Assembly: GCA_008632985.1 (NCBI GenBank)
Contig: QPGO01000078.1
Location: forward strand, 62,001 to 126,000
Source of the DNA: Psammoneis japonica
Lineage: Eukaryota
Reading direction: 5' to 3'
DNA length: 64,000 bases
Positions 102 through 54,817 of the stretch are shown in pieces. Made by a program: the position numbers and the translations under genes. Numbering within the stretch: position 1 is the first letter of the stretch; every line of letters begins with the position of its first letter. The notes under the pieces were generated by a model. The model had not been told where the DNA came from. It worked only from the letters and a program-made list of their open reading frames with translations, and did not search any database.

Positions 102-190
102 GATCTTTCAAAGGCTCTCAGTCACACGTCATTATTTGATAGCCTTCGATCTTTCAAAGGCTCTCAGTCACACGTCATTATTTGATAGCC
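102..190. repeat. Perfect 43-bp tandem duplication (102-144, 148-190)
   Basis: GATCTTTCAAAGGCTCTCAGTCACACGTCATTATTTGATAGCC occurs twice, separated by TTC. Confidence 0.95.
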
Positions 191-233
191 GTCTACGTAT
201 CGTCTCTGCTCAATGAAACTGAAAACATGGCGA

Positions 234-1502
234 TCAAATGAGTTTCTTGACAATGAGCGTAATGTCATCTCTGTACCAACTCTCATTCTTGGGTGAAACA
301 GCGAGAATCGTGTCAAGGCAAGTCACCAGCGGGTGATGATTCTTTCCCCTGTAGAAGCAATCAGCAAAGCGCTTGGCAAAAAATTGTGGGCGGCGTGCAT
401 CCCATAAACCATCACTGGCGGCCAATACGAAACTTTGTTGTGGCAACAACGTTTCGAGATTCAGTACGTCCACAATCGGTTCAGCCGTCACGCCAACCGC
501 TCCCCACTCCCAATCACCAATGCTACGACTCATTGCCAATCCAATCATCTCATGGTAAGCGACATGAGCCGTGCTATAAACAATCACCCGAGAAAGGGCT
601 GGATTATTTGGTGGAGTATGAATGGTGCCATTCAACGCCTCAATCCTTGCACGTTCGTCTGGCAAATGTGGCTTGTCTCTACGACTCGCATAGGTTACGT
701 TCTCGGCATTGGAAGATACCGTAACCACAAGTGTTCGGCTATCACCAACATTTGCTATAAACAGCTTGTTTCCTCGTCGTAGAGTAACTGACGCTGTGCA
801 GCCACCCAGCATGGCATTTGGAGGTGCGTTGGCGTCAACCTCCACAAATGTATCCTTTAGGGTTTGCGCAATCCATGCATCATCCTGTATCCCTGAAACT
901 TCATTGAACTTTCTTGCCAATGCATATGGAAGCTCCTTGGATGCATAACGAGCTACGAAATGTCCGTGTCGACCATGACCATCAAAAATTCCAATAAAAA
1001 AGTCAGAGGACGAAACCGTCTGCAACGTCGGAAAAGGATCCAACACAATGGCAGCATCCTGGTTGCCGGTCGGCTTTCGATTACTCATACGAGTCAAAGT
1101 TGCCATATCCATTGTTCCAAAGGGGAGAACGGGAGGCGGTTTTCTCGGATATTTGTTTCTAAATGTTCGAATGGATTCAATGTCATCTCGAACGTCGTCC
1201 ATTTCGTGAGGGAAAATTGGGCAACCATAATTTTCGCAGTCACTTTCAATACGACGACCGTTGTTTTCATTCGCTGTAAAATCGGGGATGCTCTTTTCAA
1301 CAGAGGTCGCCAAAATGCTTCTAGAGTACCACCTTGTACACGTCAATGCCAATCCAACTAAAACGCACAACGAAATTCTTTGATATCCAAAGGATCGTGC
1401 TTGGACCACGACTTTTTTCCCGTGAATTTTTTCTTCGTCGCTTTTCACAGAATTTCCAAGGCGTGAGGAGAGCCCTATTGATTGAGATGCTCGTGATCTC
1501 AT
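234..1502 (-). CDS. PP2C (PPM) family protein phosphatase with possible N-terminal membrane anchor; start uncertain (ORF open to 1679)
   Basis: PP2C motifs NQDA, IFDGHG, GCTA, ANVGDSR, LAMSRSIGD, LASDGLWD, DDIT. Confidence 0.9.
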   Translation of the reverse strand: MRSRASQSIGLSSRLGNSVKSDEEKIHGKKVVVQARSFGYQRISLCVLVGLALTCTRWYSRSILATSVEKSIPDFTANENNGRRIESDCENYGCPIFPHEMDDVRDDIESIRTFRNKYPRKPPPVLPFGTMDMATLTRMSNRKPTGNQDAAIVLDPFPTLQTVSSSDFFIGIFDGHGRHGHFVARYASKELPYALARKFNEVSGIQDDAWIAQTLKDTFVEVDANAPPNAMLGGCTASVTLRRGNKLFIANVGDSRTLVVTVSSNAENVTYASRRDKPHLPDERARIEALNGTIHTPPNNPALSRVIVYSTAHVAYHEMIGLAMSRSIGDWEWGAVGVTAEPIVDVLNLETLLPQQSFVLAASDGLWDARRPQFFAKRFADCFYRGKNHHPLVTCLDTILAVSPKNESWYRDDITLIVKKLI

Positions 1503-2022
1503 ACAAGAGTCATCAGCATTTAGGTAGTGCCGCAGCTCTATGCCGCGTTGGCGAAATGAGAAGGAAGGATAGATCGCAAAAATCAAAGATCTGGTCCCGT
1601 AATCCCGCACTGTACCGTACAGAGTGCAGACCTTGATTTGATGGACGACGAGGAAGAGAAGATAGAGCAAACAAAGCATCCTGGTAGTCTAGTTACCCTT
1701 GTGGATTGAGTCTCTGGTTTGACAGACCTGTTTTACTATGTACCGTAAGGTGTGCTAGTGTGCACATTCCTCACATTCAAAAGTTGAAAATTGCTCAAAT
1801 TTTATCGACTAATCTACCGGTTGCCATCATGCTTCACCATGTCTTACCTCGTAACTTCAACCAGTTCGACTTTCGATCTGCTAACTTTTTTCCTACCCTA
1901 CCATCGATTTTATTAGGTACTTCTAGTCATCCAACGAATATTGAAAATGAAGAACTGAGCTACTTTAGCTCTCTTATTCTAAGTACTGTGCATCCTGAAA
2001 ATCCAAGCTGAGCACACAACAT

Positions 2023-2625
2023 CTAAGATGCAAGCTTAGAGGTGATGCCAGCAAAGTGTTTTCCGTGAGACTCGGCAATTTCCAGCTCAAGGTCCGAAGG
2101 CGTGCGTGATCCGTCGGCTCCGGCATAAGTGCCACTTCCATAGGCACTAGCACCGTGAATCTCATCAAAGGTGAAGACCTTTGGCTCCGTGTATCCAAGC
2201 GGAACAAAGACCATACCCAAATGAGTAAAGTAGGGAATGCAGCTGAGGTTGACAGTTTCCTGTCCTCCACCCATGGTTCCGACACTGGTGAAGGTTCCAG
2301 CGCTCTTTCCGACAAGAGCACCGCTCTGCCAAAGGGATCCAGTGGAGTCCATGAATGCTTTCATTTGCGCGGGGAAGGTTCCAAATCGTCCCGAAAGACC
2401 AAACATGAATCCGTCGTACTCCTTCATTTTATCAGGAGTAATAATGGGAAAGTCTGGTTTGGGAGGAGCTCCCATCTTGCCGAGAATCTCGTCGTTGAGG
2501 GTTTCAGGGACTTGGAAAATGTCAACGACTGCACCCGCACTCTCGATTCCCTTCTTTACAGCCTTGGAGAGAGCAGTGATGTGACCGTACATTGAATATT
2601 GGATGATAGCAATCTTAGGAGGCAT
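2023..2625 (-). CDS. wrbA: Flavodoxin-like NAD(P)H:quinone oxidoreductase (WrbA/PST2 family)
   Basis: MPPKIAIIQYSMYGH, FQVPETL, GRFG..PAQMKAFMDSTG.LW, GGGQET, GASAYGSGT..G.DGSR.PS..EL. Confidence 0.93.
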   Translation of the reverse strand: MPPKIAIIQYSMYGHITALSKAVKKGIESAGAVVDIFQVPETLNDEILGKMGAPPKPDFPIITPDKMKEYDGFMFGLSGRFGTFPAQMKAFMDSTGSLWQSGALVGKSAGTFTSVGTMGGGQETVNLSCIPYFTHLGMVFVPLGYTEPKVFTFDEIHGASAYGSGTYAGADGSRTPSDLELEIAESHGKHFAGITSKLAS

Positions 2626-3217
2626 CTTGTTGTCGTTTGGTGCTTCGCGAATGAGAAGAGAACACAGCACATCGATGTGAGAAAACAAGGTACAAGGAAA
2701 TGGAATGATTAGACTCGCACGTAATCGACCAATGGCCAATGGCCTCCGATAAAACTTTAATATCTTTAGGAGAAACTTACCTTGATATATCCTTCTTCGT
2801 TTCTTCCGTGATGTGAAATTCAATTTTGTGTGACGGTCTGACTCCAGACTTCTTTTATTGCTTTCATCATGTTGGTCGGAGAGCTTGTGCAGTTCGCCGA
2901 TCGCCGGCGCCGATCTGGATCGCCGATGCCCTTTTTTCCGAGTGAGTCGTGGAAGGTTGGTCGCGAATTGAGAGTGACGTCACTCAACGTCACCTTTTAC
3001 ATAAACGATTGATGCGTTTTCCGTTTCACTCATCCACATACTGTAAGTCTACATTCGGCAATGAAGGGGTGTGGTTGAGGGCGTAAGTACTACTGAAGAC
3101 TCTAGTAGACGATGCTTTTATATGCTGCATCAAATAAAACAAACTAAAACTTTTTTTTGATAGAAAAGATTTTTTTGATGTGCTGTCCTACAGAGCGCAG
3201 CTTTGAGAGACGTAATT

Positions 3218-4069
3218 TCACTCCCCTTCGTCACTGAAAGTATAAAGCCTTTTCAGTGTCTTCCATCCACGGGGCAAAACGTAATCTCCGTCAGCTTCTG
3301 TTTCCGATGCTTTATCATCGCCATCAAGCTCGGGTTCAGCGCTTTTCTCCTCATTAAGCTCTCCGTCCATCTCCTCCACTGCTGGTGGTGAGACGACATA
3401 TTGAACCTGCCACACATCACAATTGTCAAATAAAAATGAAAGTCCCAGCAAGGCTTTAAAGTATTGCGAATGTCCAACAATGGCGATATCGTCTTCTGGT
3501 TGTTCGCTTAACCATTCTTTAAATGATGCCATTCGATTCGCAAAGGACTTTGAGTTCCCAGGCAGCCACTCTTTTGGTGTCTTTTCAACCAACATATCCA
3601 GCTCTAAAACACGATCAACACCCTCTGCTTTGGTAATCTCCTTATTTCCCTCTGTAGCGCAGTTCAACATGCCTCTACTTGTTTCTCGAGCTCGTTTCAA
3701 CGGAGAATGAGCCACCAGCTTGATTCCTCTCGTTTGAAGGAAATTGTCATTCGCCAGCTGTTTGCCGACTTTTTCAATCTGTGTCTTTCCTACGTGGCTT
3801 ACGTCAGAGTCAATCATGCCATAAATATTTACGAGACCCGCTGAAGACTTTACATCGTCCTTGGAGGGCAGGGACAAACCTCCGAGCGTCTTGACGCAAC
3901 GTTTCAGCGACGCTAATTTTCGGTTTTCTTCAGATTCGGCGTGACGAATCAAATAAATCGTCTTTGTTTCGCTCGCTTTCGGTGCTTCGGTGGAACCCAT
4001 GACTTTAGTGATGGATAATAAGCTTAGCAACAAGGTCAATGCCACACTACCAACAAGGAGTCGTGGCAT
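3218..4069 (-). CDS. Histidine phosphatase / phosphoglycerate mutase-like protein with N-terminal signal or anchor
   Basis: IYLIRHAES, HSPLKRARET, IAIVGHS motifs; hydrophobic N-terminus. Confidence 0.85.
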   Translation of the reverse strand: MPRLLVGSVALTLLLSLLSITKVMGSTEAPKASETKTIYLIRHAESEENRKLASLKRCVKTLGGLSLPSKDDVKSSAGLVNIYGMIDSDVSHVGKTQIEKVGKQLANDNFLQTRGIKLVAHSPLKRARETSRGMLNCATEGNKEITKAEGVDRVLELDMLVEKTPKEWLPGNSKSFANRMASFKEWLSEQPEDDIAIVGHSQYFKALLGLSFLFDNCDVWQVQYVVSPPAVEEMDGELNEEKSAEPELDGDDKASETEADGDYVLPRGWKTLKRLYTFSDEGE

Positions 4070-4399
4070 AAGGAACGAGTGTTACAGTATTGACTCTTTA
4101 GCTGTTGGCTTTTTTGATTTTGTCGTGGTGCGTGGTCGGTGCTCCGGTCGCATAGAGCATATTAATGAATATAGATATATATATATGAGTTAGCCGGGGT
4201 AGGGCTCTAGTAGGCTAGTTCCGTGTATCTGCGCGTTGTGTAGTTACACGGATTGGATAAAAAAGCTTCATCCATTTCATTTTCGCTCCCTATGTATGAC
4301 CGGTGTAGATACTCGTTCATCATAAATTTTTTCATTCCGGACACTGTTCTTTCTATTTATTATATAGAAAATGGATGTTATATAGTTAATGCAGTCATA

Positions 4400-6800
4400 C
4401 TGTACGAGTAAGGGGTGGTTGTCGCGCGCAGTTTTCGCGGGCTGTGCGCGTGAGATCCGAATCGATTCTGGCGCCGTTGTCAGTATGTTGTTAGGTTTTT
4501 GCTGTCATCTTGGCGTGGTATCGATGGTCTCTGTGTGTAGTATGTTAGTAGTCGTTCCGTATGAGTGGTCTGGCGCGAGTGGGGGTCATTTAGTGTTTGT
4601 AAAGGGACAGACCAGCTCCATCCTCCCATTGAGGACGTCTTGAGCTGATCTGGGACGAAGGGATGCGTGATCCCCTGAGGCAACGGTGAGTCGCCCGCAC
4701 CAAAGTGATGCTCGTTCTCGCGTTAACATAGCCGCATACCTCTGAATATGGCTTTTGCCATTTCTCAGCTAGTTTTGCAGAGATTCTGCGCAGCGCTGCT
4801 TTGGCTTCCTTGCCAAACAGTCCGTCGCATGATGCGACGAAGGGAGTGAAGTGACGTCGTTGCTCAAGGCAGGGCTTGAGGTGCTTACGCTTTTTCTCTC
4901 GTTCGTGTTGTTCCAGAACTTCTTCCGGTGTCTTGGACAGGTGTGACTTCGCGTCCGTGTCCGGAGTGGGAACATCCATGATGGTGTCTGTCCTTTTGTC
5001 CCAAAATCCTTTGGACAAAAGATCTCCGCGGTCATCCTTGGACATGTTGGAGTTTGTGTTGCCTTGGGAGTTGTTGGAGGAGCCTGGGCTTCCTGAGATA
5101 TGACCAATGGGGTTAATGAGGGGTTCGTCGCGTACGCAGGAGGGCTTGAAGGCCGTTCCAACTAGGTCACCGAGGTCATCACGCACATCGTCGTGTCGTG
5201 AGATGACTGGGCCACCCTTTTTGCACTGCAGGGCATGGGCGATGAAGAATTTGCAGGCGCATCCATCGCAGTGCTCCGGGAGGTTGGGGGGAGTGCAGCC
5301 ATGTCGCAGATGGAGCGCGTCACGGAATTCTAGACAAGAGAGTTCCGTGCCGTTTATGATCGATGGGCACACCGACAGCCATGCTCCAGTGCTGGTGCCA
5401 TGCTTGACAGCTCTGGCTTTTAGGTCGGTTAGAGTCCGGAGGATTGTCTTGAGTTTCTCCTCGTGCATCTTGGCTTTCCTGTTGGCTGCTTCTTCCTTCA
5501 CTTCGCGCATGGTGTCCTTGTGGACTGCTGAAGAGAAATCTGAGCGGCCGCGGAGTGAGTCCATCACGTGAGAGCACGTGAGAGCACTTGCTTCATAGTT
5601 TTGGGATGCAGACTCCGTTGGACGAGGGATGGACAGTCCTGCAAATTTGATTGGGAGGGCAGATGGGGCCAGTCTCAGATCGTCATCTGCCAAGGTCTCG
5701 CCAATTGGTGCTGGAAGGAATTGGCGCTGGATCGCGCTCTCTGCTTCCGCAAAGGATTTGCCGCAGTCCTTTGCCACCCATTGGACGTGTTGCCACTGGT
5801 GTTGCAGGGACTTTTGAAGACCGGCGTGGGCAGTCTGCAGATGATGAATCACCACATTTGCGAGTCCTTGGACGACCGAGGTCCACGACTCGGCTTTCTC
5901 CGCTGGCCATCGGTCGCGTGCATCCGTCTCTCCGACGAAGCCTCCGAGGCAGCGGCTGCCTGAGCAGATGGTGAAGCCGAGGTCTCCAAAGCACGCCCTG
6001 GCGCTTTCCAGGTTGCGTTCTGGGACTGCCAGGATGTTCTTTTTGTCAGTGGCAGGGCAGCAACCATGCTTGGGTCCTTCGACTCGAAGAGTTAAGAAAA
6101 ATTCCTCAAGGATGTTGAATTTCCCAGCTGCAGCGGAGTCGTCGGCGCACCATGGCGTGAAAGCATCTTGGTGGATGTCATTCAACTTGTGGACTGGTGG
6201 GAGAAGGCCCAGTCCATGGGCTGCCATGCCAAGTGGGTCGCCCTGCGTGACACCTTCCTTGCTGAACAGTGTGAAGGTGGTGCCAAAGTGTCCGCGGACA
6301 ATTGGGATGCTCCAATGCTTGTAGCTGTTGAAAGTGAACCTGGCGCCGGATGGCCAGAGGTGTCTGACGTTGCACAACATCAGTGCTCTGTTCTCTTCGT
6401 TGAATCTGTTGGAGGCGTCAACGAAGAGGAAGCTGCAGTCATCCTCGAACTCATGCTGTTCCCAGAGGAGATTCATCGCATGAATCGCGCCTTCGATGCC
6501 TGCTTCTAGACCTGCACACAGCTGATCCGTTCCACAGGCTTCTTTGGCCTCTGCTCCAGCGACTGGGAGAACGGCTTTGGCCATGGCTTGTTGCCACACC
6601 TCTCCTGTGCCGACCGGGCGCACTCCCGGGTTTTTGTCTAGCGCGATGAGTCGCTTTGCCATGATTGCGCGGCAGGCGGCCCATGGGGGCGATTCATTGG
6701 CCAGCCAGTTTGTGAATGTGCGCAACGCTTCACGAAGCAATCCACTGGCTTCTCCACAGCGGAGCAGCCACTGCGACACTGCATTGGCATCGGATCTGCC
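4400..6800 (-). mobile_element. 5'-truncated CRE-like non-LTR retrotransposon (RT + zinc finger + restriction-like endonuclease), hypermutated; ORF 4590-6851
   Basis: RLIALDKNPGVRPVG, QLCAGLEAGIEGAIH, EGVTQGDPL, WCADD (YADD), CDGC..HALQCKKGG..RHD, RGDL, EKKRKH, FTPFV.S.DG; element ends approximate. Confidence 0.9.
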
Positions 6801-7407
6801 AAGCTTTGTGTGTGTTAAATTTGCCAAACATTTTTCACATGATCTCCTCAAGTGGACACCCCGTGCATAATTCTACGTCCTTTTCACGTGGGATTTCTGA
6901 TCAAATTTTCTGCCCAATTTGTTCCTGCGGGACTTGCTCAATCCTGTTAACCGCCCCCCACAAGACCCAACATGCGTCAATGAGGACACAATGAAAATGT
7001 CTTTCATGACTGCAAATCTACGACCACACGATTCCATGGCCACACAAACATGATGCAAGAACAAATCCATCACCCTGTCATTCCCTGCAACACCCTCTTG
7101 CGATGTGTGAATTGCCGCACCCGGAACCTTCCGCCCAATGCCAGAATGACGCACACATTGTTTTTTGTCTGCATCCCAATGGAAGCCGGTGCAACTGATC
7201 CATGCCTTTTTTGACTGTGTGTTCTTCTTCTCAGAATGCTCTTTGTCGAAAAAAAGGCATGCACCGAATCAGACCATGATGGTCCTTTTTTGTCACTGAA
7301 CAATCTCACCCCGTCCTTGCTGTCGCTGTTTTCGTTCTTGGAGATGAAGGACGGCATTCTTTTTTTATCATGTGTGAGTTAGCCGGGGTGGGGCCAGTTG
7401 GTCGCGC

Positions 7408-8085
7408 ATGTTTGGGTTCGATGTGACCGTCCAACTAGCCACACCCTGCAGAAAAAGCTGTTGGTGGCGCGCGAGCAGAGGCAACAACGCAAAAAAATGG
7501 CGTGGGGCGTGGGTCAAACGTTGTGACATGACACGGCAACAAGCAATGAGAAGAATCCCAACTGGACCCAGAAATGCATTGCACAAACATTGTCCAACAG
7601 GTTTGATCTCATCTGGAAACACCAGCTGGCAGACAAGTGAACGGCGTTCACGTTGCTCGCCATGGTGTTGTTGTGTGTTGTCGTGAGGCTGCTGTTGTTG
7701 CGCACGAAGGACGGACATCTATTTTGCCCACAGTGACTCTGTTTTGGCAACAGTGGAGTTTTAGCCATGTACAATCTTAGGACAATTTGAGAAGCGCTTC
7801 GCGACAACTCTGTTCGGGACGTTAAATAGAAATTTTTTTTATGCAGATTTTAAAACATGTTTTGGGGTGTTCCTCACTTTTTTGAATTTGGGCATGCATC
7901 TTTTCAAGACCGCAGCAATGTCAATGATGTGCAAAACCCCAAGAGACCCACATAAATTTGTCTTTAATGTAGACAACGTAGACTGTGTGCCGGCGGAAAA
8001 TCCACCGCACGTCAACTCACTCAGCAGCAATTCCACATTTGTTCCACTTGCACCTCACACACATGCACACGCCTGCACAGTCTAA
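7408..8085 (+). repeat. ~700-bp dispersed repeat, copy 1 (copy 2 at ~18920-19620)
   Basis: Shared blocks such as TTTGATCTCATCTGGAAACACCAGCTGGCAGA, ATTTTGCCCACAGTGACTCTGTTTTG, GAAAATCCACCGCA.GTCAACTCACTCAGCAGC. Confidence 0.85.
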
Positions 8086-8249
8086 CAACCGCGCACACGT
8101 GCGCGAGACAATCACCGCAGTGGATTGAACCAACGCCACTGTAACAGCAGACGTGGTGCACCACATGGAGGTCGTCGCAGCCACGCAGGGTTTGCTCGTC
8201 GTCACAGTGGTTCTGGTCTTGCTGGTGTTGGCGGTGTCTGGGGTGGTGG

Positions 8250-9190
8250 GCGTGGACATGGCCGTGGTGGTGGCCCTCCTTTTGCATCTCATGGTGGAAC
8301 ATCGCACGACGGCAGTGATGGTGACGGCAACAGTGTTGGTGGCAACATCCTTGCAACCGGTGGCCGTCCCAAGCCCTGCTGATGGATGTCATGGTGGACA
8401 TTTGTGTGACAGCAGTGGGCGTGGACATGGCCGTGGTGGTGGCCCTCCTTTTGTGTCTCATCATGGTGGAACATCGTGTGATGGCAGTGATGGTGACGGC
8501 AACAGTGTTGGTGGCAACAGCCTTGCAACCGGCATCCGTCCCGTGACCAGCCCTCCCTGTGGATGTCCTGGTGGACATTCGGATGACAGCAGTGTGCGTG
8601 GATGCAGCCGTGGTGGTTGCCCTCCTTTTGTGACTCATGGTGGAACATCTTCCAACGGCAGTGATGGTGATGGTGACAGGGTTGGCGGCGACAGCCTTGC
8701 AACTGGTGGCCATCCCGTGATCAGCCCTCCCGATGGACATCGTGGGGACATTCGGATGACAGCATTGGGCATGGTCATGGTCGTGATGGCGGCTCTTCTT
8801 TTGCATCTCATGGGGGAACATCGTCTGACGGCAGTGATGGTGAAGGCGATGGGGTCAGCGGCGATGGCCTTGCAACTGGCAGCCTTCCCGTGATCAGGGG
8901 GGTCATGGTGTGCAACATCGCGGTGGGGGCTGTCTCGGCCGCAGTGGGGGCCGTTGTGGCAGCCGTGGTGTTGGGCGTGGACAAGGCCGCGGCCGTGGCC
9001 GTGGTGGTGGGTGTGGTAGAGGCCGTGGTGGTGGTGGGCATGGATGTGGCTGTGGTGGAGGACGTGGCGGCCGTGGTGGTGGTGGGCGTGGATGTGGCCG
9101 TGGTGTGGGCCCTCCTTTTGCATCTCATGGTGCACCATCGGATGACGGCAGTTTTGGTGGTGGCACGGGCAACAGCCTTGCAACCGGCAG
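8250..9190 (+). repeat. Degenerate tandem array (units of roughly 170-180 bp, ~5 copies) encoding Gly-rich GHGRGGGPPF.SHGGTS.DGSDGDG
   Basis: Recurring GGCCGTGGTGGTGGCCCTCCTTTTG..TCTCATGGTGGAACATC and GGCAGTGATGGTGACGGCAACAG. Confidence 0.8.
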
Positions 9191-9245
9191 CCGTGGTTCT
9201 GACACTTTTGTCAGCCCCAACTCATCTTCTTGATCGGTTCCCGCG

Positions 9246-12200
9246 TTGGTCATGACAGGTGCTCATTGGGACACCACCTCATCACCCGGCGAACCGGTGC
9301 TGAAGAGGAGGAGATGGCTCAAAGAACGGCACAGTGACTCTGAGACAGATGTGCTTGGCAATGAACGGCACAGTGACTCCGAGATGGATGGGCTTGGCCC
9401 GAACAACCAGATTCCAAATGTAGATGAGTTGGCCAGTGAGTCTGATGACGACAGCGATGCCAACACAGAGGTCAGCTGTGACTTCCTTCAAGGTCGGCAT
9501 GTCGACTCGACGTCTGATGATGTCGACGATGATGGTTTCGGTCAAATGCACTGCCCGGACAGGGCCTGTGGGTGTCAGACTCTGTTGGATGACCCCGTTC
9601 AACCTTCCGTGAGTGCGTCAATTGATTGCACAAAATCCGCCAAGCCCACCGATCTAAAGTGTGAAAGCATCAATGTTGCTTGTGCGGACTCGGAGTCTTC
9701 ATGCCGCCACAAAACTCATCTGTTGTTTGAAATGCGCAACGAACCCATTGCCGCTTTCAAGGATGAGGACAGCTCCAATCTCACCTGTCAGCACGCCCGG
9801 CACACATCATGTCTTGGCGTGTGAGAGAGCCGATCATGGATTTGTGATGGCGAACAAGCTTGAGTGCTCACCTCATTTTACTCTGGGGGATTTGATGCTC
9901 GCCAGCTGCAAGTTAAAATGCAATCATTTGAACATCCAACATGCCGAGGCAAAGGCCGGCAAGCACAACACCTTGAAGCATGGGGGGAATGTCGCGTTTG
10001 CATCCATTGGCGAGGAAAGCTTTATGGAGGACATCCTGTCTCTTGACCTTGAATCCGCATGGTACAATGTCATGGTGAAGGATGATGAGTCGGATCCTCG
10101 GAAGAAACATGTGGCGCAATGTGGCCCCAGGGGCAACCGAGGATTTGCCATCGGAATTTGTGGGGACCAGTGTGTTGATTGTGACGAAGATGGGATTGCT
10201 CATCCAGAATTCAAGACCGGGACCACCCGGTGCACTCCTTTGATGTTGGCATTCAACAAACTTTGCAAGAAAGCTCACTCTGCATTCCTTCCCGACGAGC
10301 CGTTCATGGACAAAACCCTGTTTCCCACTGGGAGGAAAGACTTCGCCACAAAAATTCATGAGGAAATGGACCTGGAGTTTGTTTCTTGCAATTTTTTGAT
10401 GCATCTGAACGATGGGTCGTACATTGGACCGGACCGTTTAAAGCGTCACACCGACTCACAGGGGTGCCGCATGTGCAGTGACCTGCATGATGCATGGCAA
10501 ACGTTTGTGTGCAAATGCACCAATGTCAGGGTGACGGCTGCAACAACGGGTGGTTGGAAAAATTCAGTGTCTGACTGTTGTGAAAGGATGGAAATTTTTG
10601 GCAAGGCAAGTGATCACTTGATGCACCAGTGCAACCAACTGCCGGCCGAGCAACGCAAGGTGGTTGCCGCCCTCCACTGTCCAGACACAGTCCCTGTCAA
10701 GACAACACCCGTTCATTGCCAGCCATTGGTCCAAATGGCGTCACTGTTTGACGAGATTCTCAGAGTCTCCAATGCACTGGCCGAGGATGGCCGCACAATG
10801 TCGGGTTTCCTGTTTTTGGAAATGACACATGGTTTTCATGCATTCTCCAACAATGCATGCCGATGTGAATTGTTTCGTCGTTCTTACATGGAGGTGAGTG
10901 AGTGCGATCCTTTGCCTGTTGTCCATTGCATTAATTTCATCGGCTGCTCTCACTCCCGGTTGCTTCTGTCATTTGCCAGGATTGGGGCCACTCGTTTCGC
11001 CCTGGTTGGTCGTGCGCCAAGGAGCGCCGCAGGTTCCTGGGACAGAACTTCCCATCCTTCGATGGTTGCCGTGACTTTGACGGTGAAAAGGTCGGTGGCA
11101 TCCGATTCCAGTCGACACAGTCTCACCCTGTGATGGATGACAGTTCCGACAATGCCTGCCGAGAATTGCACATGATTGTGTCCCCCCACCGCAATGTTTC
11201 CATCTCCCATGTCGCGTGCAAGAAACTCATCAAGAAAATAATTTCAAAAGTGCCCGGTGCACAAGATCTGAAGTCTCAAAAGGTTGTCACCGGTGGTTTT
11301 GCCCTGGCGAAAGAATTTGACATCAATGTCTTGAACATGACGTATCCGGGAAGTGACACAGGAATGAAGAAGCTTTGTTTGGCTGGCTTCGACATTCCAA
11401 ACAAAGAATCTATGACAATGGTTGTCAAGAGTGCATCTACAAAGACGAAATTGCCCGTCATGAATGGTGAAGAAACAACTTGTGTCGTCACGCGGTCGAT
11501 CGGTGACGGCCGCCGTAATGAGGGCGAGGACAGCATTCCTCGCAACGTTCCCACTCCCTTTTCACAACTGAATGACGATGGATTGCCTGAGGTTTGTTTG
11601 TCGGACAAGTCCAATGGCCGACGACCATGATTGCTGCAGCGGATTCATCTAAATTGGAGCTTGGATCCCACGGCAAATCATCATGTGCCGACCTGGGCGC
11701 CGGTGAATTGCAATTCGGCCGACACTGTGAGTCAATGTCTGGCCACGAGAAAGCTGTCTCTCATGGCAAGAATGCCCACACTGAAAAATTGTGAGTGGTC
11801 TCACAAGGCCAGGACTGCCGTTCAGGGGCGGGAGAAGTTGGAATGGATGACACTGTCACTTTAACGGATTTCTCCGACACCGTGGCTGTGTTGCAGAAAT
11901 TGTTGAACAAGGGACAACACCTGGCGCTTCATGATCCATCGGAATTTGTTGCAACCAAATGCTCGGGCATCCAACGCAAATCTCTGGTTGAATCAATCGA
12001 AACCAAGAAGCACTCTGACGGCTCTTTCGAGGCCAGTCTATCCTGTTCCGACATTCCCCGACATGTGAAGACCGCTCAATTCGGGTCGCTTCACAAAGAC
12101 CACTTGCCACCACTTGGACCAGTCGGCCAGGACAAGGGATTGCACAGCACCAGACATGATGCCTTGAGCGCATTGTTGTTGACTCTGATGTTTGAAACCA

Positions 12201-12454
12201 ACTGTGGAAATGGCAGGAGCTGGTTGTGGCACTGTCTTCGAATTGCTCGTGAGTTTCTAGCGCTGTTGCCGTCGTCTAAAAAAAATCCATCTGTGGTGCG
12301 GGTGGTTGCAACCGTGTGCAGAGAATCCAAGAATGCATCACGGGAGCCCCGGGTGCATGCAAGACACTTGTCCGAGAGCGATGGAAAGGCACTGCATCCC
12401 TTGGAGGTGGCAAGAGATGCCCATGGTCAATTGGATGGTTTCTGTTCGTTGTGA
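9246..12454 (+). pseudogene. Large hypermutated gene of unknown function inside the repeat block, with an intron at 10894-10979
   Basis: Collinear ORFs 9246-9824, 9661-10893, 10980-11630 and 11795-12454; removing the GTGAGT...CAG intron joins the frames; Tyr nearly absent, His/Cys in excess. Confidence 0.55.
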
Positions 12455-13837
12455 AGCACTGCTGTGTTTACATTGTTGCATCTGAAACAGAGATGTGAAC
12501 CATCTTTGCACTGTCTCATGTTGGTGAACTGGCCTTGGCAGGGTCAACCATCATTGCACTGTCTCGTGTCGATCGAGCTGGCCTTGGTTGGGTCATGTGC
12601 AATGGTGACATGGGCAAAAGCAACCCGCAAAGCACATTGCATGTTGCACGCACATGCAGCACGGTGGTGGACAGGAGTTCATGTTGGACGCAAATGGGGT
12701 GGAACAGTTGGTTTGTTTGTTTGTCGGCAAGTGCCCGAACCCAACATGAGTTGCTTTGTTGGACACAAACGGGGTGGAATGTTTAGTTTGTTCGTTTGTC
12801 GGCAAGTGCCCGAATGCAACATGAGTTGCTTCGTTTGCAGTTGTTGGCTTCCTTGCCACAACGGCGTCCAGCTTCCTCATTTTCTCATGTCGCTCTGCTT
12901 CCACCTGAACAGCTTTGGTGTCATCTGTTTGACTTTGACGGGATCTTTTCCTCACCGGCAACTTGTTCGTTCTAGACGCAAGGATGTCTTTGTGCTGCAG
13001 TGCAGCTGAATGAGAACACTTGGTTGTCTTGCAGAACTCTTCACAGTCGCCCATGTGAAGGGTGCGGCCACCCGGCAAATGTTTCATTGTCACATGGCAC
13101 AGACCCGTGGTGAGCTTGTACAATGCGTCATGCGAGTGCTTGCAATCGCCGACAAAGTGACCCCTCAGGGCATTCTTGCAGTCGATTGTTCGTGTTGGAT
13201 CGATGGGTGTCCCAAGGGACTCTTGGGTGTTCACCAAGCAGCCACCCTTGTGTGCAACCATGTCCTTCTCCAAATCCATCTTGCCAATTTCCGCAATGAC
13301 GTTTTGGGTGAGGGCCTTGTCCCAGTCGAGAATGCGCCAACCCTTTCCAATGGCAGAACACTCTTGCGTGTGTGTGTGCATCAACCCGGGCAATGCATCG
13401 TTGAGTGCACGATGCATCGAGACACCAGAGGGAAGCAGACCAACGAACTGATTGCTTCCTTGCATTTCAAGATTCATTCTGCAATGCAATGAAAGGCAAA
13501 CCGCGTGAGTGTGGAATTCAGCAACATGCAATGACAACAGAAAGGGCACGGACTCACCTTTCGTGCGAGTTGTTTTGGGGCACGCAGCCCGGCTCCCCGA
13601 ACGTGGAATGATGCCACCAAGAAAAATCTTTGTTCTCGACATTCTGGCAGTCAAACACCTCCGCAAGCTTTGTCTCTCCTGCCATTTTCCATGAATGAAT
13701 GACCACCTTGGCCATTGGGTAAAACAGCTCCCATGTCTTGCATCGATGAAGCTTCCTCACGTCCTTCATGGCCACCCTCATGAGGAAGCTTTGGTCTTTG
13801 ACGCACTTGCGACATTGTCCATTGTGCTTTCTTGTAA

Positions 13838-14659
13838 GAGCATCTTCGCCAGTGAGTCGTAAACATAAACCTATGTCCGTACGTCTTCCGATACGAATGA
13901 GATTCGCAAAAAATCATCATTTTCGGTGGATCGTAAGCATATTTTTTGCGCTAATAACCCTTTTCGAATTTACGATTCATGAAAGTGAATCGCAAATCAG
14001 GCCTTGGATACGATCCACCTCCAAAATCGTAAACGAAAATCGTAAATTTCTGGTACAAAAAGGGTGTAGAAATCCTGTAGAAAGTGCGTGTCACCATGAC
14101 GAAACGACAATCGACGCTTTCTTGATGAGAGGGCCTTACAGAGGCCCAACAATTAAGACTTTGTCGTATCTTATGAACTTACATACGGCCGCATCGAGAT
14201 ATGGGAGGAGAACCGACATATGGGGGGTTTATGGGGTCAGAAGAGAATAAGGCATAAATCGTGTGATAACATTTCGCTTGTTTTCGCGATGTAGAATGAC
14301 TTTCACAACATAGTAACACATAGACATATAATATGAATTATTCTCTATTGATAGACGTCGACATATCTTTGAATAGACGGTGATTTGTGTCGTATATTGC
14401 GTTCAAAGCCGCCATGGCGTCATGTAAAATTCAACAAGTCCGTCCTACCATCAGTTAGTTATTGATATACGTGTATGGAGTTGGTTGTTACCTCAACGTC
14501 TGCCCAACCATCGGCCGAATGTGAATACGATTGTGATCGACTGAAAATGATGGTCGCGTGCAGAATCGTAAACTTATACGGGGCAGTCTGTTCGCTTGTC
14601 CTTTTAGGTTATGTTCCTATGTTTATGTTTATGTTTGCGACTCACTGGCGAAGATGCTC
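13838..14659. mobile_element. PIF/Harbinger (Tourist-like) MITE, 822 bp, TAA target-site duplication
   Basis: 33-bp TIRs GAGCATCTTCGCCAGTGAGTCGTAAACATAAAC (one mismatch); TAA at 13835-13837 and 14660-14662; excision restores the MULE frame (..KFRTDFTRKHNGQ..). Confidence 0.9.
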
Positions 14660-15245
14660 TAAAGTCGGTCCGGAATTTACGTGTGAGGTGTGGGCAGCAA
14701 GTTGCAAAAGGATCTTCGGGAAACAACAGTTTGATTGAACGCGTTCTGGAATGAGTGCGAGTGATCCGAGCACAACCCGCTGCCAAAGTGCAAGTCATCT
14801 GTGCCAAACAAATCGAAAGCCGCCTTCTTCATTGCAAGCAGCAGGTGCAGCGCACCCTCTTCGTGCTCCGCTGTTGCAAGTGCACAACCGACAGGCTTGA
14901 ATGAGGACGAAAAATGTTGCTTGCCCCCCCTTTCTCATTTTGTGTGGTCCGTGACTCCAAAAACAATGGTCACAAAATCATTGCCGACCACACTGTGCAT
15001 GCCGTCTGTCGTTCCAACTGTTTTGAAGTCGAGGTCCTTGCAGTCGCACATGTTTCTGAGCAGCCCAAGGGACGAAAAAACGATTGTGTTGTCCATTGCC
15101 GGCAAGAATGGACCCTTGCTCCCCTTTTTCTTGTTGTGCAATTCCTCGGCATTTCTCTGACACAACAGCATCCTGTCTCGAACCTTTTTGGGAAGGTCGC
15201 CGAGGTCGGGGACCGGAAGACAAAACATGTCTGTGTGGGGCATTC

Positions 15246-16562
15246 GATGTGTTTTCATCCCAGGTGAGAAACGCGCATGCGGAGGTGAGACGTTTCGTCT
15301 GTCCCTTTTCCATCGCCGTGCTTTTTGTGCGAGCAAATCTGACTGGACTTTCCCCCGATTTTTTGTTTCTTCTTTCCACAGACATGTTTATTTTGAAAAG
15401 CCAGCCGTTGTTCTCATTGGTTGAAGGGTGCGTACAAGAAAAGCGCTGTCTCGAAAGCGGCATTTTTTGGAGTGAAGCTGACAGCCATCTGCTCGTTGTT
15501 GTCATTCTGGTGCATTTGAGAGACTGTTCCACTGTTTCTTTCACCAAATCTGACTGCTTTGAAAGAATGCACGCATTGTTCATTGTGTGAAGAGCTCATG
15601 CCAAAAAAGAACGGCGTTCTAACTCCATCATTTGCACAAGAAAAATCGGGGGAACTGACTTTGCACGTGATTTTTTTGCGCGATCGGCCATTTCAAAGAT
15701 CGACTGATTTGTCGACCTGTGTGGGACACTTGAGTGAATAAAACAACAGGATTGAAATGGCAGCGTCAAAGTTCAATGTGTGTCTGGTTATTGTGTGATT
15801 TGATGTGCCCAAGCAGAGTTAAAGATGAAATGTTGACAAAATTTCACCGCTCAAAATGACTGGTTCTATCTTAGAATAAAATAAAATGGCTGCAACGCTA
15901 AGATGTCGCTGATGGTGTTGTTCTACTTTACAACAATGAAACTGTCACACTTGCATCTGAGATTCTTTATCCTCACACACCCTCAAAACCGAACACATGA
16001 CGATTCTCTTGTCGGCAGCGAAATCTGATGTTGTCGCGCGACCCAAAAGCGTCGTCCATGACGACTCAAAGTGCGGACGATACATTGTAAGAATCCCAGC
16101 AACGTGTCATAGAAACATTCTTCATTGTCAGTGTCCGGTGTCAAGCAGATGGAGCAGCGCGTTGATGAGAATCCTACTTCGCAAGCTGAGGAAGAGAGAA
16201 AGAGGTGTCAAAAATGTCATGAGTCAAAAGGCCATCCATGAGGCACAACAAAAAACAAAGATCAAATTTTCAACCACATCATCGCATTGAGCGTTGTCTT
16301 ATTGACCTGTCTTGGCATTCTCACCTTCTCAGTCACAACATCCGTTGGTGCAAGAATGGACGAGTTCATGGCGACGGCATGGTGCCATTTTCGGTTTGCG
16401 CGAATTGTGGTTTGTGGTTCGAGACATGGAAAAATATATTTTTACTGTCATGGAGCTCGTTTTTTACTAAGATTTTTGGTGCTAAATGTACGTCTCATGT
16501 AGAAACACGTAGAAAACCTCGTGATGTGTCCAAAAGTTTCTCACCTAGGATGAAAACACATC
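15246..16562. mobile_element. Non-autonomous TIR DNA transposon, 1317 bp, 4-bp TSD ATTC (superfamily uncertain; Sola is one candidate)
   Basis: 27-bp TIRs GATGTGTTTTCATCC[C/T]AGGTGAGAAAC; ATTC at 15242-15245 and 16563-16566; excision restores the MULE frame (..SKEGMPHTD..). Confidence 0.85.
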
Positions 16563-18919
16563 ATTCCCTCTTTGCTGTGTCGCTTGCCCCGGCATCCGGT
16601 GTCGCACAGATCTTTGGCGAGTTCCATCATGTGAACCTCGGAGGACACCAAATGGGGCTTGCAGGTGGATGGAAGACACAGAGCATGGTTTCAACTGAAT
16701 GCAAGCAAGTCTTGTGTGTGCTTGATCTTGACCTTTTCAGCGGGATTGTCCCCGAGGGATGACTGGGGACGTTGATCGTTGCTTCTGTTGTTGGAATCAA
16801 GCAAGTGACAAATCTTGTTGCTCACCTTGTCCCTCAGTTCTTGGGTGGCAAACAATGGGGCGATGGACGGGTTTTCGGAAACTGACAGTTTGGCAACTGT
16901 GCGGCGGGTGATGTCCTTTGGTTTGAGGGACGGGTCGTCCTGTTTTAGCTTGTCCACGTGATCCTTGACCAGCGGCGGCAAACCTCGGGAACCAGTGGAC
17001 AGCATGTGGTCCACCCACGTCCGGCGCATGTGGGTGGAGTGATCTCGGAGGATGCGACATTTGCAGTGCTCCTTGCCGGGGAGCATCACTGTCTCAGCTT
17101 GAAAGGGACAATCCTTGTCAACCTTGCAGCTGTGTGTTGTCGTGATGGGCTGCAGCGGGTCTTGTCTCCTCAGGAATGTGTTGTTGTTTCTGTCCGTCTT
17201 TGCGTCTGGACCTGGAAAATGTTTTGCCTTGTTTGCGGACTTCATGAGGTCGCCTGGAACGAGGTCAAGGGCACGGCCGGAACCATGATCATGGCGGGGA
17301 ACCGGCTTGGGCAGAGAAAGGCTGCTGGCTGTGTCGGGGCCACACAGCTTGGGTGGAATGGCTCCCAGCCCATGAATTTTGGAATCTCCATTGACAGATT
17401 CTTTGCATTTCATGACGGAGGAAGATTTCTTTTTCAGAAAATCATCACAAATGGCAGCAAGGAGCTCGTTGCCCCTTTTGCCCAAAATGGAGTCTCCAAC
17501 GTGCTGGACCCGCTCAGCAAACGCTTTGGAGTCCGGAGCAAAAATGGAGCGATCCTCAGTGCTGATCTTGCGAGCCACGACCGCAAGACATGAATCTCTG
17601 ACGGGACCGGGACCCACCCCTTCAGCCAGAGATCGGAGGCGGGTGGCGGGAGATGGAAGGTCGCCGTCGCTGAGACAAGACATCAAAAGAGTGGTGAAAA
17701 GGAAAAACGCCATGGCAGATGTGCTGAAACGAAGGAAGCGGAACAAAAAGAGCATCACGGGGTGCCAGATCTCAGTAGTGTGACAAAAAGTTTCCCGCCA
17801 AAACATCAGTCCCACAAGATCCGCAGGTCCCGCAAATGCTGCCAATGACAGGCCTCATTTCCGTTGATGGAATCAGCTTCTTTTGCCATGAACAAGTTGG
17901 GGAAAATTCAAACAAAGTTTGTCAAACAAATGTTGCCAATGCTGCCGAACGAAGGGCAAGATCGGGGGCGGGTCGACTCGATTAATTTCAAAAACAAAGG
18001 GCAGCAGCAACTCGCTTTCACAAACCCAGACACGAGAGCAAGTGAGGCATCTGCAAGATGACGAGAACGAGAGGAAATGCATCGCAGAACAGGTGAGCAA
18101 CAGGCGACGGCGTGGATCAACCAACACAAACAAGAGCTGATCCTGCGTTGTCACGTCTTTCATTGCACAGGCCGAAAAGGAACGGATCGCCGCCTGCAAG
18201 AAGCGTCTCTCGCACACAGCACTTTTTCCACCCGAGGCAGCAACCCAGGATGGCGATGGTGCTGAGACGACTGCGACGTGACTCCGAAGGTCGAAAGCAA
18301 GGCGCGATGAGTGAGATTGTCAGAGGGAGGGGCGGGTCTGTGTCCGCTGAGCCTCAGACTCCTGATGCCGCCACTGGAGGAGCCGATGGAAGGGCGCGGG
18401 TGACCGGAAGATTGACCAGCGGGGTCCGTCGCCAAGCCACTGGGAAATTCCTCAAATGTCCACGACACCAACCAACTGTCCACAAGGAGCTGTGGCACCT
18501 TCCCAGAGAGTCAAGGGGAAGGAAGATGAAGGACCTGTGGGCATGATGGGAGGGCGAAGAGCGAAGCCACCACGAATGGACAGATGATTCTTGTTTGTGC
18601 TGTTTGGCTAAACGGCCATGATCTGGGAAAGGCAGAGCAGGGTGGAACAATCGTGTGATGAAGGCACAACATCGCCGTTTGTCGGGACCGATTGAGGCAA
18701 GACGAGATTGCATTTTGTTGACTTTGTGCCCAAAAAACACCGAAAAATTGCACTCACCATCATGTCTGGTTGCATTGAATCCAATTTTTGAATGTTTCCA
18801 TTGGGGTGTCTTTCGGTCATTTACATCAAATTTTTCTTAAATGTTGTGATGGCCCGCAGACACACGAATGACCACATTGCAGATGCACATGGCAAGCTCC
18901 AGCAGCAGTTGGTCATGCA

Positions 18920-19620
18920 CGTTTGGGTTCGATGTGATGAGCAACTGTCATGCCACCCTGCAGCAGCCATGCCCTGCAGGAAAAGCTGTTCGGTGGTGGG
19001 CGCGCACGCGATCAAGCAGAGAGCAGAAGCAACAAAGCAAAAAACATGGCATGGGGCGAGACGTTGTAAAGTGACACGACAACAAGCAATGAGAAGAAAC
19101 CCAACTTGACCCAGGAACACAGCACACAAATGCATTCCAACAGCTTTGATCTCATCTGGAAACACCAGCTGGCAGATGAGTGAATGGCGTTTGCGTTGCT
19201 TGCCATGGTGTTGTTGTGTGTTGTCGTGCCGCTGTCATTGCGCATGAAGGACGGGGATCCATTTTGCCCACAGTGACTCTGTTTTGCCAACAGCAGACAT
19301 TTTGCTGTGTGCAATCAGAGGACATTTTGAGAAGTGCTTCATGACAACCCTGTTCGGACCGTCAAACAGAGTTTTTTTTATCCAGATTTCAGAGTCCTTG
19401 GGGGTGTTCTGTCAGACTTTTGGGTGGGTGCATCTGTGAATTAAAGGCACAAGAAAATTCAATGACATGCAAAACACCAAGAGACCAACACAAATTTGTC
19501 TTCCATGTGGACCACGTAGATTGTGCACCGGCAGAAAATCCACCGCATGTCAACTCACTCAGCAGCGGTTCTGCACATGTGCTGCTCACACCTCACACGC
19601 GCACACACACCTGCACAGTC
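18920..19620 (+). repeat. ~700-bp dispersed repeat, copy 2
   Basis: Collinear similarity to 7408-8085. Confidence 0.85.
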
Positions 19621-19685
19621 CAGTGACCGCACACACGTGCACAAGATGAAGGACAAATCAGCGATTGTGCAAGCAAGCAAGCAAC

Positions 19686-20180
19686 CCACTCTCCATCGTG
19701 AGTCCATGCGTCGACCGATGCACGCACTTCGCACATGTGCCCAGTCACCACTCTCCATTGTGAGTCCATGCGTCGACCGATGCACGCACTTCGCACACGC
19801 ACCCTGACCACAGATTTTCAAAAAGCACAGATTTCCCATTGTTCAGCTAAACCTGGGGTTGGTTTTTTCCAAAATTTGCCAAATTGTTGCGATCTTTGAA
19901 GAACCCTTCTGCAGGCCCGGCGTGGCAAAAGCAGGCCCGGTGCGGTCTGCGTGCACTTTGCGCACTGCGCACATTTGTGCCACTGAGGGGGGAAGACAGA
20001 AGGGGTCAGATTCCAGATTTTCCATTCTAAAATCTCACTGATTTCATGCGGCCCCCAAAACAATCTTGCAGATTTTCAAATCGACACAGATTTTCCATGA
20101 TGATCAGGGCACCTGGTCACCACTCTCCATCGCGAGTCCATGCGTCGACCAATGCGTGCGCTTTGCACATGTGCCCGGTC
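19686..20180 (+). repeat. Three 62-bp tandem units, the second interrupted by a MITE
   Basis: CCACTCTCCATCGTGAGTCCATGCGTCGACC at 19686, 19748 and ~20120. Confidence 0.85.
19802..20109. mobile_element. Hypermutated Tc1/mariner-type MITE related to 58313-58628; left TIR partly deleted; TSD reads CA/CA
   Basis: Right end CACAGATTTTCCATGATGATCAGGG vs CACAGATTTTCTATGATGATCACGG; shared internal TTTGAAGAACCC, ACATTTGT, CAGATTCCAGATTT. Confidence 0.75.

Positions 20181-21153: not shown

Positions 21154-21157
<4 letters not shown>

Positions 21158-21223
<66 letters not shown>
21158..21223. repeat. (CA)33 microsatellite
   Basis: Direct reading. Confidence 0.97.
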
Positions 21224-21225
<2 letters not shown>

Positions 21226-21799
21226 GCAAGAGAAAATGGTTGGGTGCACAGAAACAATGGCTGCTCAAGAAGCCAACCAGTCCCCCCAGAATGACAAAGA
21301 GTCTCTCTTTTTTGTCAAAAGGCATCATGAATGATTCTCTGTTCAAGGGTGGGAAGTCCCTTGTTTTTGGGGGCATTTTGGAAATTTCGCTGGAAAAATG
21401 GACAAAACAAGACAGCATTTTTTGCGAATGCGTGCGATTCATGGAAAAATGCTCAAACGGCTTGAGCGCGAATTCTGAGCATGCAAACAACACGACAATG
21501 GCTGAGGTGCCGTTCGTTGAATGCAGTGGAGGTGGGGAGGCCTCCAACTTTCTTCGTGAGTTTGTCACCCATGTCAAACACGACACACCCTGAAAAAAGT
21601 TGGAGGCTGCCCCACTGAGTTTTCGAGAACGAACGGCATTTCGGCCATTGTCGTGTTGTTTGCGCGGTGAGCGCCGAACGCACTGGGATTTTTTTCCACA
21701 ATTGCATCACAAATGATTAAAACGTTTGTCATTTTTGATGCTTTTTACAAACACATGTCAAAAACACAAGGGAGTTCCCAGCCTCAAAGCTGCAGAAAA

Positions 21800-31319: not shown

Positions 31320-31384
31320 CTGTGGAGTGGGAATTTTCATTGACCACTCAGTGGTTGGTGATTGCAGACTTTTTCGCGTCGGTC

Positions 31385-54397: not shown

Positions 54398-54817
<420 letters not shown>

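Follow-up and report, generated by a model that had tools for sequence, protein, structure and literature searches.

The 64,000-nucleotide stretch of the pennate diatom Psammoneis japonica analysed here (the window: contig QPGO01000078.1 of GenBank assembly GCA_008632985.1, positions 62,001 to 126,000 of the forward strand) carries a copy of a non-long-terminal-repeat (non-LTR) retrotransposon. Its reverse transcriptase (RT) frame is open over 760 codons, and conserved tyrosines in it are replaced by cysteine or histidine. A preliminary description, made from the sequence of the window alone, treated this recoding as a feature of the one open reading frame (ORF). It is instead one part of a block-wide erasure of the dinucleotide TpA, which affects about 39.8 of the 63.1 kb that were segmented (Table 1).

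The retrotransposon copy and its recoded tyrosines

Homology of the frame to its relatives spans positions 6803-6842 down to 4593, while the first 23 codons do not align and are not family sequence. As this homology begins at residue 357-460 of relatives that are 1094-1191 amino acids long, the copy is 5'-truncated, and it lacks about 350 N-terminal residues. A word-indexed search returned 146 relatives of the frame protein at E ≤ 0.001, the best with 53% identity; few of these were named, and all of the named ones were from diatoms (Attheya, Cyclotella cryptica, and Fragilaria crotonensis). An exhaustive search returned 14,293 relatives, and the relatives of the element come chiefly from diatoms and marine metagenomes. 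Intact relatives have 1090-1190 residues and match the Pfam family RVT_1 weakly (P0002, E 2.6e-7). For the window copy, in which the motif at this place reads CADD, a Pfam search gave no RVT_1 match even at E ≤ 1.

A profile built from 26 family members found its best solved-structure matches in R2 retrotransposon proteins (E 1.2e-7), and also matched RT structures of the long interspersed nuclear element (LINE) type. Downstream of the RT, residues C535, C538, H546, C550, H560, D617, D633, D640, and K660 are invariant in the 26 sequences, a pattern that we take to be a Cys-Cys-His-Cys (CCHC) motif followed by a putative PD-(D/E)xK-type endonuclease. The order of an RT, a CCHC motif, and a conserved C-terminal domain bearing Asp and Lys is shared with R2-type (restriction-like-endonuclease) elements, a likeness that consists of a distant profile match spanning only about 150 residues. 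The label of the CRE clade, to which the preliminary description had pointed, is tentative, as is that of R2, Ambal, or another clade.

All nine peptide strings quoted in the preliminary description for their unusual Cys and His residues were found in the translation, including WCADD, with its TGC codon at the place of the catalytic tyrosine. At ten Cys or His places in these strings, Tyr is the commonest residue of the family (up to 267 homologues): place 67 (91 of 182 homologues), 219 (214 of 225), 269 (77 of 228), 271 (217 of 230), 308 (172 of 231), 349 (180 of 242), 524 (186 of 251), 644 (132 of 227), 664 (214 of 228), and 242, the YADD position, at which 227 homologues have 191 Tyr, 33 Phe, and a single Cys. 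At place 272, Phe is the commonest residue (135), with Tyr in 51.

Columns with at least 70% Tyr were then compared across all homologues that cover at least 5 of them. The window copy has Cys or His at 7 of the nine such columns in its homologous part and keeps Tyr at two (184 and 709). Among 232 homologues, the highest count of Cys or His was 3 of 9, and 177 had none; the homologue count used 11 columns, two of which fall in or before the 23 non-aligning N-terminal residues. Cys and His at these places are thus not borne by intact relatives. Tyr accounts for 0.68% of the residues in the window protein, compared with 1.38-4.11% (median 2.34%) in 205 homologues. The two further replacements that had been pointed out, Ile to Thr in GTGE and Leu to Pro in LLPP, are TA-type changes as well, with the codons ACA and CCA, respectively, and each of the Leu-to-Pro changes at conserved columns (5/5) uses CCA.

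Table 1. Elements, genes, and TpA-depleted blocks in the window. Positions are those of the window; rho is the observed/expected dinucleotide ratio.
Feature	Position	Strand	Remarks
Single-copy host gene, histidine phosphatase family	3218-4081	-	TpA normal; start codon near 4069
3' untranslated tail of the RT element	4395-4592	-	Repeated in the genome, TA-rich, not hypermutated; 16 TA in 4380-4629
Stop codon (TAA) of the 760-codon frame	4590-4592	-	
Open frame of 760 codons, non-LTR retrotransposon copy lacking its 5' part	4593-6872	-	RT and C-terminal CCHC/endonuclease-like region
Transition zone with partial TpA loss	4593-5450	-	Tyr codons 709, 715, and 758 and the susceptible ATAT and ATAC survive
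TGC (Cys) codon at the Tyr of the catalytic YADD motif	6147-6149	-	Change class TA>TG
Short CCHC-region fragment of a related element	26310-26468	+	
C-terminal fragment of a related element	28249-28811	+	52% amino acid identity; Tyr to Cys in RPCSK and LSLC; without TA
TpA-depleted block with the element interior	5500-13700		rho TA 0.11, CA 1.59, TG 1.56, CG 0.72
TpA-depleted block	14800-27500		rho TA 0.08, CG 0.54
TpA-depleted block with the second RT-family fragment and a tandem repeat	28200-31400		rho TA 0.06
TpA-depleted block, CpG also strongly depleted	34100-36850		rho TA 0.06, CG 0.15
TpA-depleted block	40300-47050		rho TA 0.13, CG 0.48
TpA-depleted block	48950-55150		rho TA 0.04, CG 0.25

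Block-wide loss of TpA, its direction, and its sequence context

In 1-kb intervals, rho of TpA is as low as 0.01-0.2 across most of the window, and that of CpA and TpG rises to 1.3-2.4. The six blocks, of 2.8-12.7 kb each, have a rho of 0.04-0.13 for TA and of 1.56-2.03 for CA/TG, whereas seven TA-normal stretches (gene islands and three short islands inside blocks) have 0.48-0.92 and 0.92-1.49, respectively. The GC content is 0.46-0.53 in the blocks and 0.43-0.48 between them. GC-biased gene conversion was considered as a cause and ruled out, as the loss is limited to TpA, and neither ApT nor AA/TT is lost.

The direction of change was read from the ORF, where each difference from the family consensus at a conserved column was assigned to the type of one-nucleotide change that accounts for it. 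The window copy has 32 such differences, comprising 13 of the type TA>CA/TG, 7 of the type CG>CA/TG, 3 other transitions, 7 transversions, and 2 multiple changes; the reverse change, CA/TG>TA, was never seen. With identical scoring, 53 unmutated environmental relatives have 12 of 1160 in the TA class, so that the TA class in the window copy exceeds chance. The Cys and His codons came from Tyr codons through single transitions at TpA. Nor is the family inherently poor in TA, since rho of TA is 0.30-0.98 (median 0.59) in 79 environmental relatives and 0.19 in this ORF. The apparent strand asymmetry of the ORF, with 10 changes TA>CA and 3 TA>TG, was rejected as an effect of ascertainment: changes of xTA to xTG are silent for Leu and Val and hence invisible in protein, and CA and TG are balanced over the blocks.

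Decay of CpG to TpG or CpA is a second process, superimposed on the first and separable from it, and explains the 7 CG-type changes above. While TpA loss is uniform, rho of CG varies about five-fold among the blocks (from 0.15 and 0.25 to 0.72), which uncouples the two. One of the 79 environmental loci, a 4049-bp contig (L036) with a full-length open frame of 1178 codons (177-3710), presents the TpA process by itself. It has Cys or His at 7 of the 9 Tyr columns, its catalytic motif reads HADD, and its 24 conserved-column changes comprise 14 of TA type, 0 of CpG type, and 10 others. Relative to the family baseline, TAT stands at 0.60 and TAC at 0.45, with TAG and TAA unchanged, and the untranslated ends are TA-rich. 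A contig from another assembly (L034) shares 94.5% identity with L036 over 1761 nt and has been mutated independently of it. Between these contigs, 73 transitions and 22 transversions were counted, with 20 pairs of TA with CA/TG and 12 pairs of CA with TG. The signature of these two contigs indicates that the process hits other family members in nature, with a like context preference, and independently of CpG decay.

Loss of TpA depends strongly on the flanking bases. Relative to normal DNA, the tetranucleotides NTAN (N, any base) survive in the blocks at ratios of 0.014 for ATAT, 0.016 for ATAC/GTAT, 0.06 for GTAC, 0.22 for CTAG, 0.31 for CTAA/TTAG, and 0.645 for TTAA. These ratios agree with a product of one term per strand, each governed by the base 3' of the adenine in the order T > C > G > A. 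The products were gained in a similar manner (per 1000: TGT +10.9, TGC +15.1, TGG +5.6, and TGA +2.7). In the interior of the ORF, 0.06 of TAT, 0.05 of TAC, 0.35 of TAG, and 0.17 of TAA are kept relative to the family ORF baseline. As the Tyr codons are TAY (Y, pyrimidine) and thereby form the best-target context, Tyr is the amino acid most visibly rewritten.

This specificity is difficult to reconcile with a passive bias, in which replication or repair errors at TpA (T:G or A:C mispairs) would go uncorrected in repeat chromatin and accumulate as a slow decay. Confinement to blocks with mostly sharp edges would fit any chromatin-bound effect, this one included, and CpG decay, itself passive, is present in the identical blocks. 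However, the NTAN contexts span a 45-fold range with ApT and other dinucleotides near normal, and the changes in L036 are of TA type without CpG type. The same spectrum is reported in Bigelowiella natans at about 1000-fold above background, and in some lines only, in the text of a preprint (bioRxiv 10.64898/2026.01.13.699255). Moreover, about 95% of interior TAY has been lost from an element that is still alignable and open, which points to a fast process. We therefore regard a passive bias as unlikely.

The spectrum of the TpA process also accounts for the openness of the frame. In the genetic code, a transition at TpA either destroys TAA and TAG or turns TAA into TGA, so that no new stop can arise. 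Read in all six frames, the blocks have 2.6 TAA and 1.3 TAG per 1000 trinucleotides, compared with 10.7 and 8.8 in normal DNA, while TGA stands at 21.8 compared with 19.3; long frames are commoner in the blocks than elsewhere. Frames that are hit stay open for this reason, and an open frame in such DNA is no sign of selection. Only the CpG process can yield a stop (CGA>TGA), and here it gave Gln instead, twice, by chance. The preliminary description had proposed inactivation of the element by missense change without stops. Both the missense changes and the lack of stops hold, but the openness is a by-product of the mutation spectrum, and the copy is in addition 5'-truncated. In a tandem repeat of about 170 bp (8246-8897, within 8020-9252), several frames are open on both strands and read as pseudo-proteins rich in His and Cys; the region 8020-9252 illustrates how loss of stop codons produces spurious long frames.

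Action on DNA in place, and the borders of the blocks

The changes were made on DNA, in place, after duplication, and on both strands. Two tandem copies with an offset of 180 bp (30408-30900 and 30588-31081) have diverged by 57 transitions and 5 transversions, including 18 places at which one copy has CA and the other TG; other, dispersed paralogue pairs have 5-15 such places each. Double changes of this kind would be expected if an ancestral TA (or CG) was hit separately on either strand, and they must post-date the duplication. Over the blocks, CA and TG are raised about equally, and the sense strand of the ORF likewise bears both products. Since the tandem copies diverged in place and both strands were hit, editing of an RNA intermediate is excluded as the source of these differences.

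The same evidence bears on the idea that the RNA of the element was hyper-edited from A to I by an ADAR-like enzyme and then reverse-transcribed, a change of A>G with a preference for a 5' U being known as an ADAR signature and discussed as such in the preprint text (bioRxiv 10.64898/2026.01.13.699255). Such editing would have to account for TA>CA (10) as well as TA>TG (3) on the sense strand, for whole blocks that include tandem repeats diverged in place, and for a 3' tail that is spared in this copy and hit in others. We find this explanation scarcely credible.

A public sequencing run, which contained 66% of the sampled words of 3200-8200, was used to build contigs from exact 31-mers. One contig spans the single-copy host gene and ends at 4395, with one difference from the window. 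At this position, the depth rises from about 55-76 to about 800, and from there on it is several hundred or several thousand; the region 4395-8200 has 2-80 times the single-copy depth. Other contigs match the TA-depleted stretches 7002-7249, 7264-7404, and 7870-8090 with 0-1 differences each. The many other copies in the run differ from the window copy by 135 transitions and 14 transversions. Among the 40 best-supported differences, the window has CA/TG against TA in 10, TA against CA/TG in 4, and CA/TG against CG in 14. A second run covers the host gene and a short repeat piece only.

On some long-read platforms, base modifications can lead to systematic miscalls, and the platform of the public run is not on record, so that TA might have been miscalled in the repeats and be present in the DNA itself. 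It is highly improbable that the pattern arose as such a sequencing or assembly artefact, as contigs made from exact 31-mers at a depth of about 55 reproduce the TA-depleted stretches, copies vary among themselves at TA/CA/TG sites as real paralogues would, and two contigs of other assemblies bear the identical signature.

At the border between the element and the host gene, TpA loss sets in gradually. The number of TA per 100 bp is 4-13 in 4000-4600, 0-5 in 4600-5450, and 0-1 in 5450-7300, and within the ORF, the remaining TA sites are found closer to the edge than CA/TG sites are (Mann-Whitney p=0.0048). Survivors near the edge include ATAT and ATAC, the most susceptible contexts, while those in the interior are mainly TTAA and CTAG. 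The last 55 codons retain Tyr, as the preliminary description had observed, and the corresponding interior fragment reads RPCSKVCGF and LSLCR, with zero TA in 28200-28860. The repeated 3' tail is untouched here, and most other copies in the run have G/C at 4485, 4560, and 4592. Together with the lack of TA in the interior fragment, the hits in other tails make the sparing positional, not intrinsic to the 3' end. The dependence of intensity on position that had been proposed therefore holds at this edge, but it is no general rule: the window has 11 other block edges, the majority of which change over within 100-200 bp, and those at 34075, 40275, and 47075 keep a few stray TAs in their first bins.

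The block with the graded edge (5500-13700) has the mildest CpG decay and a residual TpA among the highest of all. This suggests that the process weakens toward unique DNA, that the weakening is visible only before saturation, and that this edge may be a kinetic snapshot. A promoter effect is also possible, as the start codon of the histidine phosphatase gene lies about 330 bp from the end of the element and points at its 3' end. A similar gene arrangement at 31.4-32.0 kb has a sharp edge, however.

Among 123 long frames in the blocks, three have a Pfam match. Two of these lie close together on the + strand, a C2H2 zinc-finger frame (41692-42870) and a frame for a PhyH/2OG-Fe(II) oxygenase (42907-43473, E 2e-6), and could be transposon cargo or a hypermutated copy of host genes. 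The third, of the IF-2B family (40167-40517, + strand, E 3.8e-5), sits on the block edge at about 40275 and may be a host gene fragment that is cut by the depleted block or enters it. Long (CA)n/(TG)n microsatellites are found inside blocks at 21033-21706 and 54277-54946, the latter with the sole N of the window (54817); enrichment of CA and TG by hypermutation may seed such arrays. Two short TA-normal islands, 13750-14750 (1.0 kb) and 27550-28150 (0.6 kb), have sharp edges and no Pfam match, and could be young insertions or protected unique DNA.

The host genes that adjoin the blocks are long frames with a single exon. A Deg-protease fragment (56553-57635) has its best named match in Seminavis robusta (67%), and its remaining named matches are pennate diatoms; a further host gene also matches S. 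robusta. None of the matches is close to 100%, which places the proteins of this genome outside the databases. At 61702-63999 (- strand), one frame, open at the end of the window, joins the C-terminal part of a subtilase (Peptidase_S8) to a Hint module.

Candidate mechanism and comparison with known systems

We consider it likely that these patterns reflect TpA-specific hypermutation of repeats at the level of DNA in a pennate diatom, probably by adenine deamination. After integration, the process would convert TpA to CpA or TpG by transition on either strand, within repeat blocks. The adenine of 5'-T-A-3' would be deaminated to hypoxanthine and read as G, and, TpA being self-complementary, hits on the two strands would yield TG or CA. 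Susceptibility would be set by the base after the adenine (T > C > G > A), with TAT and TAC as the best targets and TTAA almost immune. Genes that are hit would gather missense changes (Tyr to Cys or His, Leu to Pro, Ile to Thr, and Val to Ala) and stay open, and spurious long frames would appear in all six frames. The action would be limited to repeat blocks and usually end within 100-200 bp of the flanking unique DNA; at a relatively young edge, not yet saturated, it would have left the last kilobase of the element graded and its 3' tail untouched. Ordinary CpG decay would be superimposed on this process, yet remain separable. Of these points, the data above establish the direction of change, the specificity for TpA and for its 3' neighbour, the hits on both strands and in place after duplication, the restriction to blocks, and the lack of new stops.

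The self-complementarity of TpA also means that A>G and T>C are inseparable by sequence, and the thymine might be the modified base, by hydroxylation to 5-hydroxymethyluracil or in the manner of base J, and then be miscopied or misrepaired as C. In dinoflagellates, 5-hydroxymethyluracil is enriched at TpA, and one of the blocks holds the PhyH/2OG-Fe(II) oxygenase-like frame, which is not of the TET/JBP type, however, and is itself mutated. There is no evidence of such a base here, and modified thymines mostly keep pairing with adenine. A requirement for a 5' T fits deaminases of the TadA/ADAT type, whose natural target, A34, follows U33. We judge a thymine-side chemistry to be very unlikely. 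The enzyme may rather be an adenine deaminase of the TadA/ADAT kind, by analogy with B. natans, whose hypermutation is ascribed, as a proposal, to an ADAT2-like adenine deaminase in the preprint text (bioRxiv 10.64898/2026.01.13.699255). Adenine deamination would further presuppose a guide to the repeats, and its role could be one of genome defence.

Several observations weigh against hypermutation of repeats by a deaminase, or limit how far it can be taken. Both the enzyme and the targeting rule are matters that we infer. The two baselines used for sequence context, normal DNA of the window and the ORFs of relatives, disagree on the order of TAG and TAA, and the baselines may differ from the ancestral composition of the blocks. 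The gradient is based on just 20 surviving TA sites. The public run probably stems from the same sample as the assembly, its platform is not on record, and it therefore does not lend fully independent support. A transposon origin is established just for 4395-8200, by depth, and for the RT fragments; block content is mostly unnamed, as 120 of the 123 long block frames are without a Pfam match. Finally, three short TA-normal islands lie within the blocks (13750-14750, 27550-28150, and 47100-48900). The last has a rho of TA of 0.92 between two depleted blocks, is tandem-repetitive inside (47645-48169), and contains long frames without a Pfam match. As it is repetitive and yet TA-normal, repetitiveness does not suffice for targeting, and with these islands a simple rule of "all repeats" or "whole domain" fails.

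The case resembles repeat-induced point mutation (RIP) of ascomycete fungi, in which dinucleotide-specific transitions likewise riddle repeats while sparing adjacent genes, give blocks of skewed composition, and inactivate transposons. RIP is associated with duplication, the sexual cycle, and a methyltransferase of the RID type, and targeted repeat mutation as a genome defence has for decades been known, to our knowledge, from fungi only. Its direction is the opposite, however: RIP converts CpA to TpA (C>T), lowers GC, and creates stops, whereas in the window TpA is destroyed, GC rises, and stops cannot arise. RIP itself was ruled out on these grounds, with TpA depleted, CpA and TpG enriched, and GC higher in the blocks. 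In the passages seen of a study of diatom DNA methyltransferases (PMC9998398), RIP is mentioned only with regard to DNMT4, and TpA is unmentioned. That diatoms, an algal group dominant worldwide, have a RIP-like defence of opposite chemistry can be put forward only tentatively. It would consist of a nuclear DNA adenine deaminase with a preference for T-A-pyrimidine that is directed to repeat chromatin and removes TpA until the genes of transposons are scrambled, with no stop codon made. As a rhizarian alga and environmental contigs bear the same signature, such a system would be ancient and widespread among stramenopiles, alveolates, and rhizarians (SAR). If this were true, the process would be a major and so far unrecognised shaper of genome composition in SAR.

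Similarly, ADAR hyper-editing and APOBEC3 hypermutation in animals are deaminase-type processes that cripple retroelements through clustered, context-dependent transitions, and ADAR also prefers a 5' U. We know of ADARs from animals only. Both act on RNA or on the reverse transcription intermediate and mark one strand, unlike the changes described here, which affect both strands, include non-coding and tandem DNA, and were made after integration. Decay of CpG by deamination of 5-methylcytosine has the same end products, TpG and CpA, and is present in the same blocks, but it acts on another substrate.

The closest counterpart is found in the chlorarachniophyte B. natans, a rhizarian; the pennate diatom studied here is a stramenopile. 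According to the preprint text, mutation-accumulation lines of B. natans mutate about 1000-fold faster in two integrated viral regions than in the remaining genome; of the 231 new mutations in these regions, 230 are A>G or T>C, and all fall on TpA (Mettrop et al., bioRxiv 10.64898/2026.01.13.699255). As in the window, the changes give TpG and CpA and are flanked by normal DNA. In B. natans they are limited to foreign or selfish DNA; in the window, such targets are established for the RT element and for 4395-8200. Intervals of 1 kb that are poor in TpA and rich in CpA/TpG are clustered, and reverse transcriptase and DDE domains are over-represented among TpA-poor genes. The two systems differ in their targets, which are giant-virus and virophage inserts in B. 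natans and retrotransposon and repeat blocks here, and in the depth of TpA depletion, with a rho of 0.04-0.13 over tens of kilobases here and of 0.45 in a B. natans viral region. The B. natans rate was measured in living lines, whereas the present case is known from sequence alone. In a term search of the preprint text, outside its figures and supplements, neither diatoms nor stramenopiles nor flanking-base context came up, and the hierarchy of TAY over TAR (R, purine) at the 3' neighbour seen here was not found in that text. In a full-text literature search for TpA hypermutation in diatoms or other stramenopiles, no report was found, and the B. natans preprint alone was returned.

For gene annotation, the process carries a warning: in such genomes, long open frames in repeats are no evidence of function, as stop codons are removed, and scrambled transposons as well as spurious frames will be called as genes. 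With P. japonica, a TpA-specific AT-to-GC process first reported in 2026 in one chlorarachniophyte gains a second, distant lineage, in which it has come near saturation. The window adds to the B. natans case a sequence rule, TAY over TAG/TAA, that any candidate enzyme has to reproduce, as well as evidence of action on DNA in place, and the targeting rule can be put to the test at its natural gradient and its mostly sharp borders.

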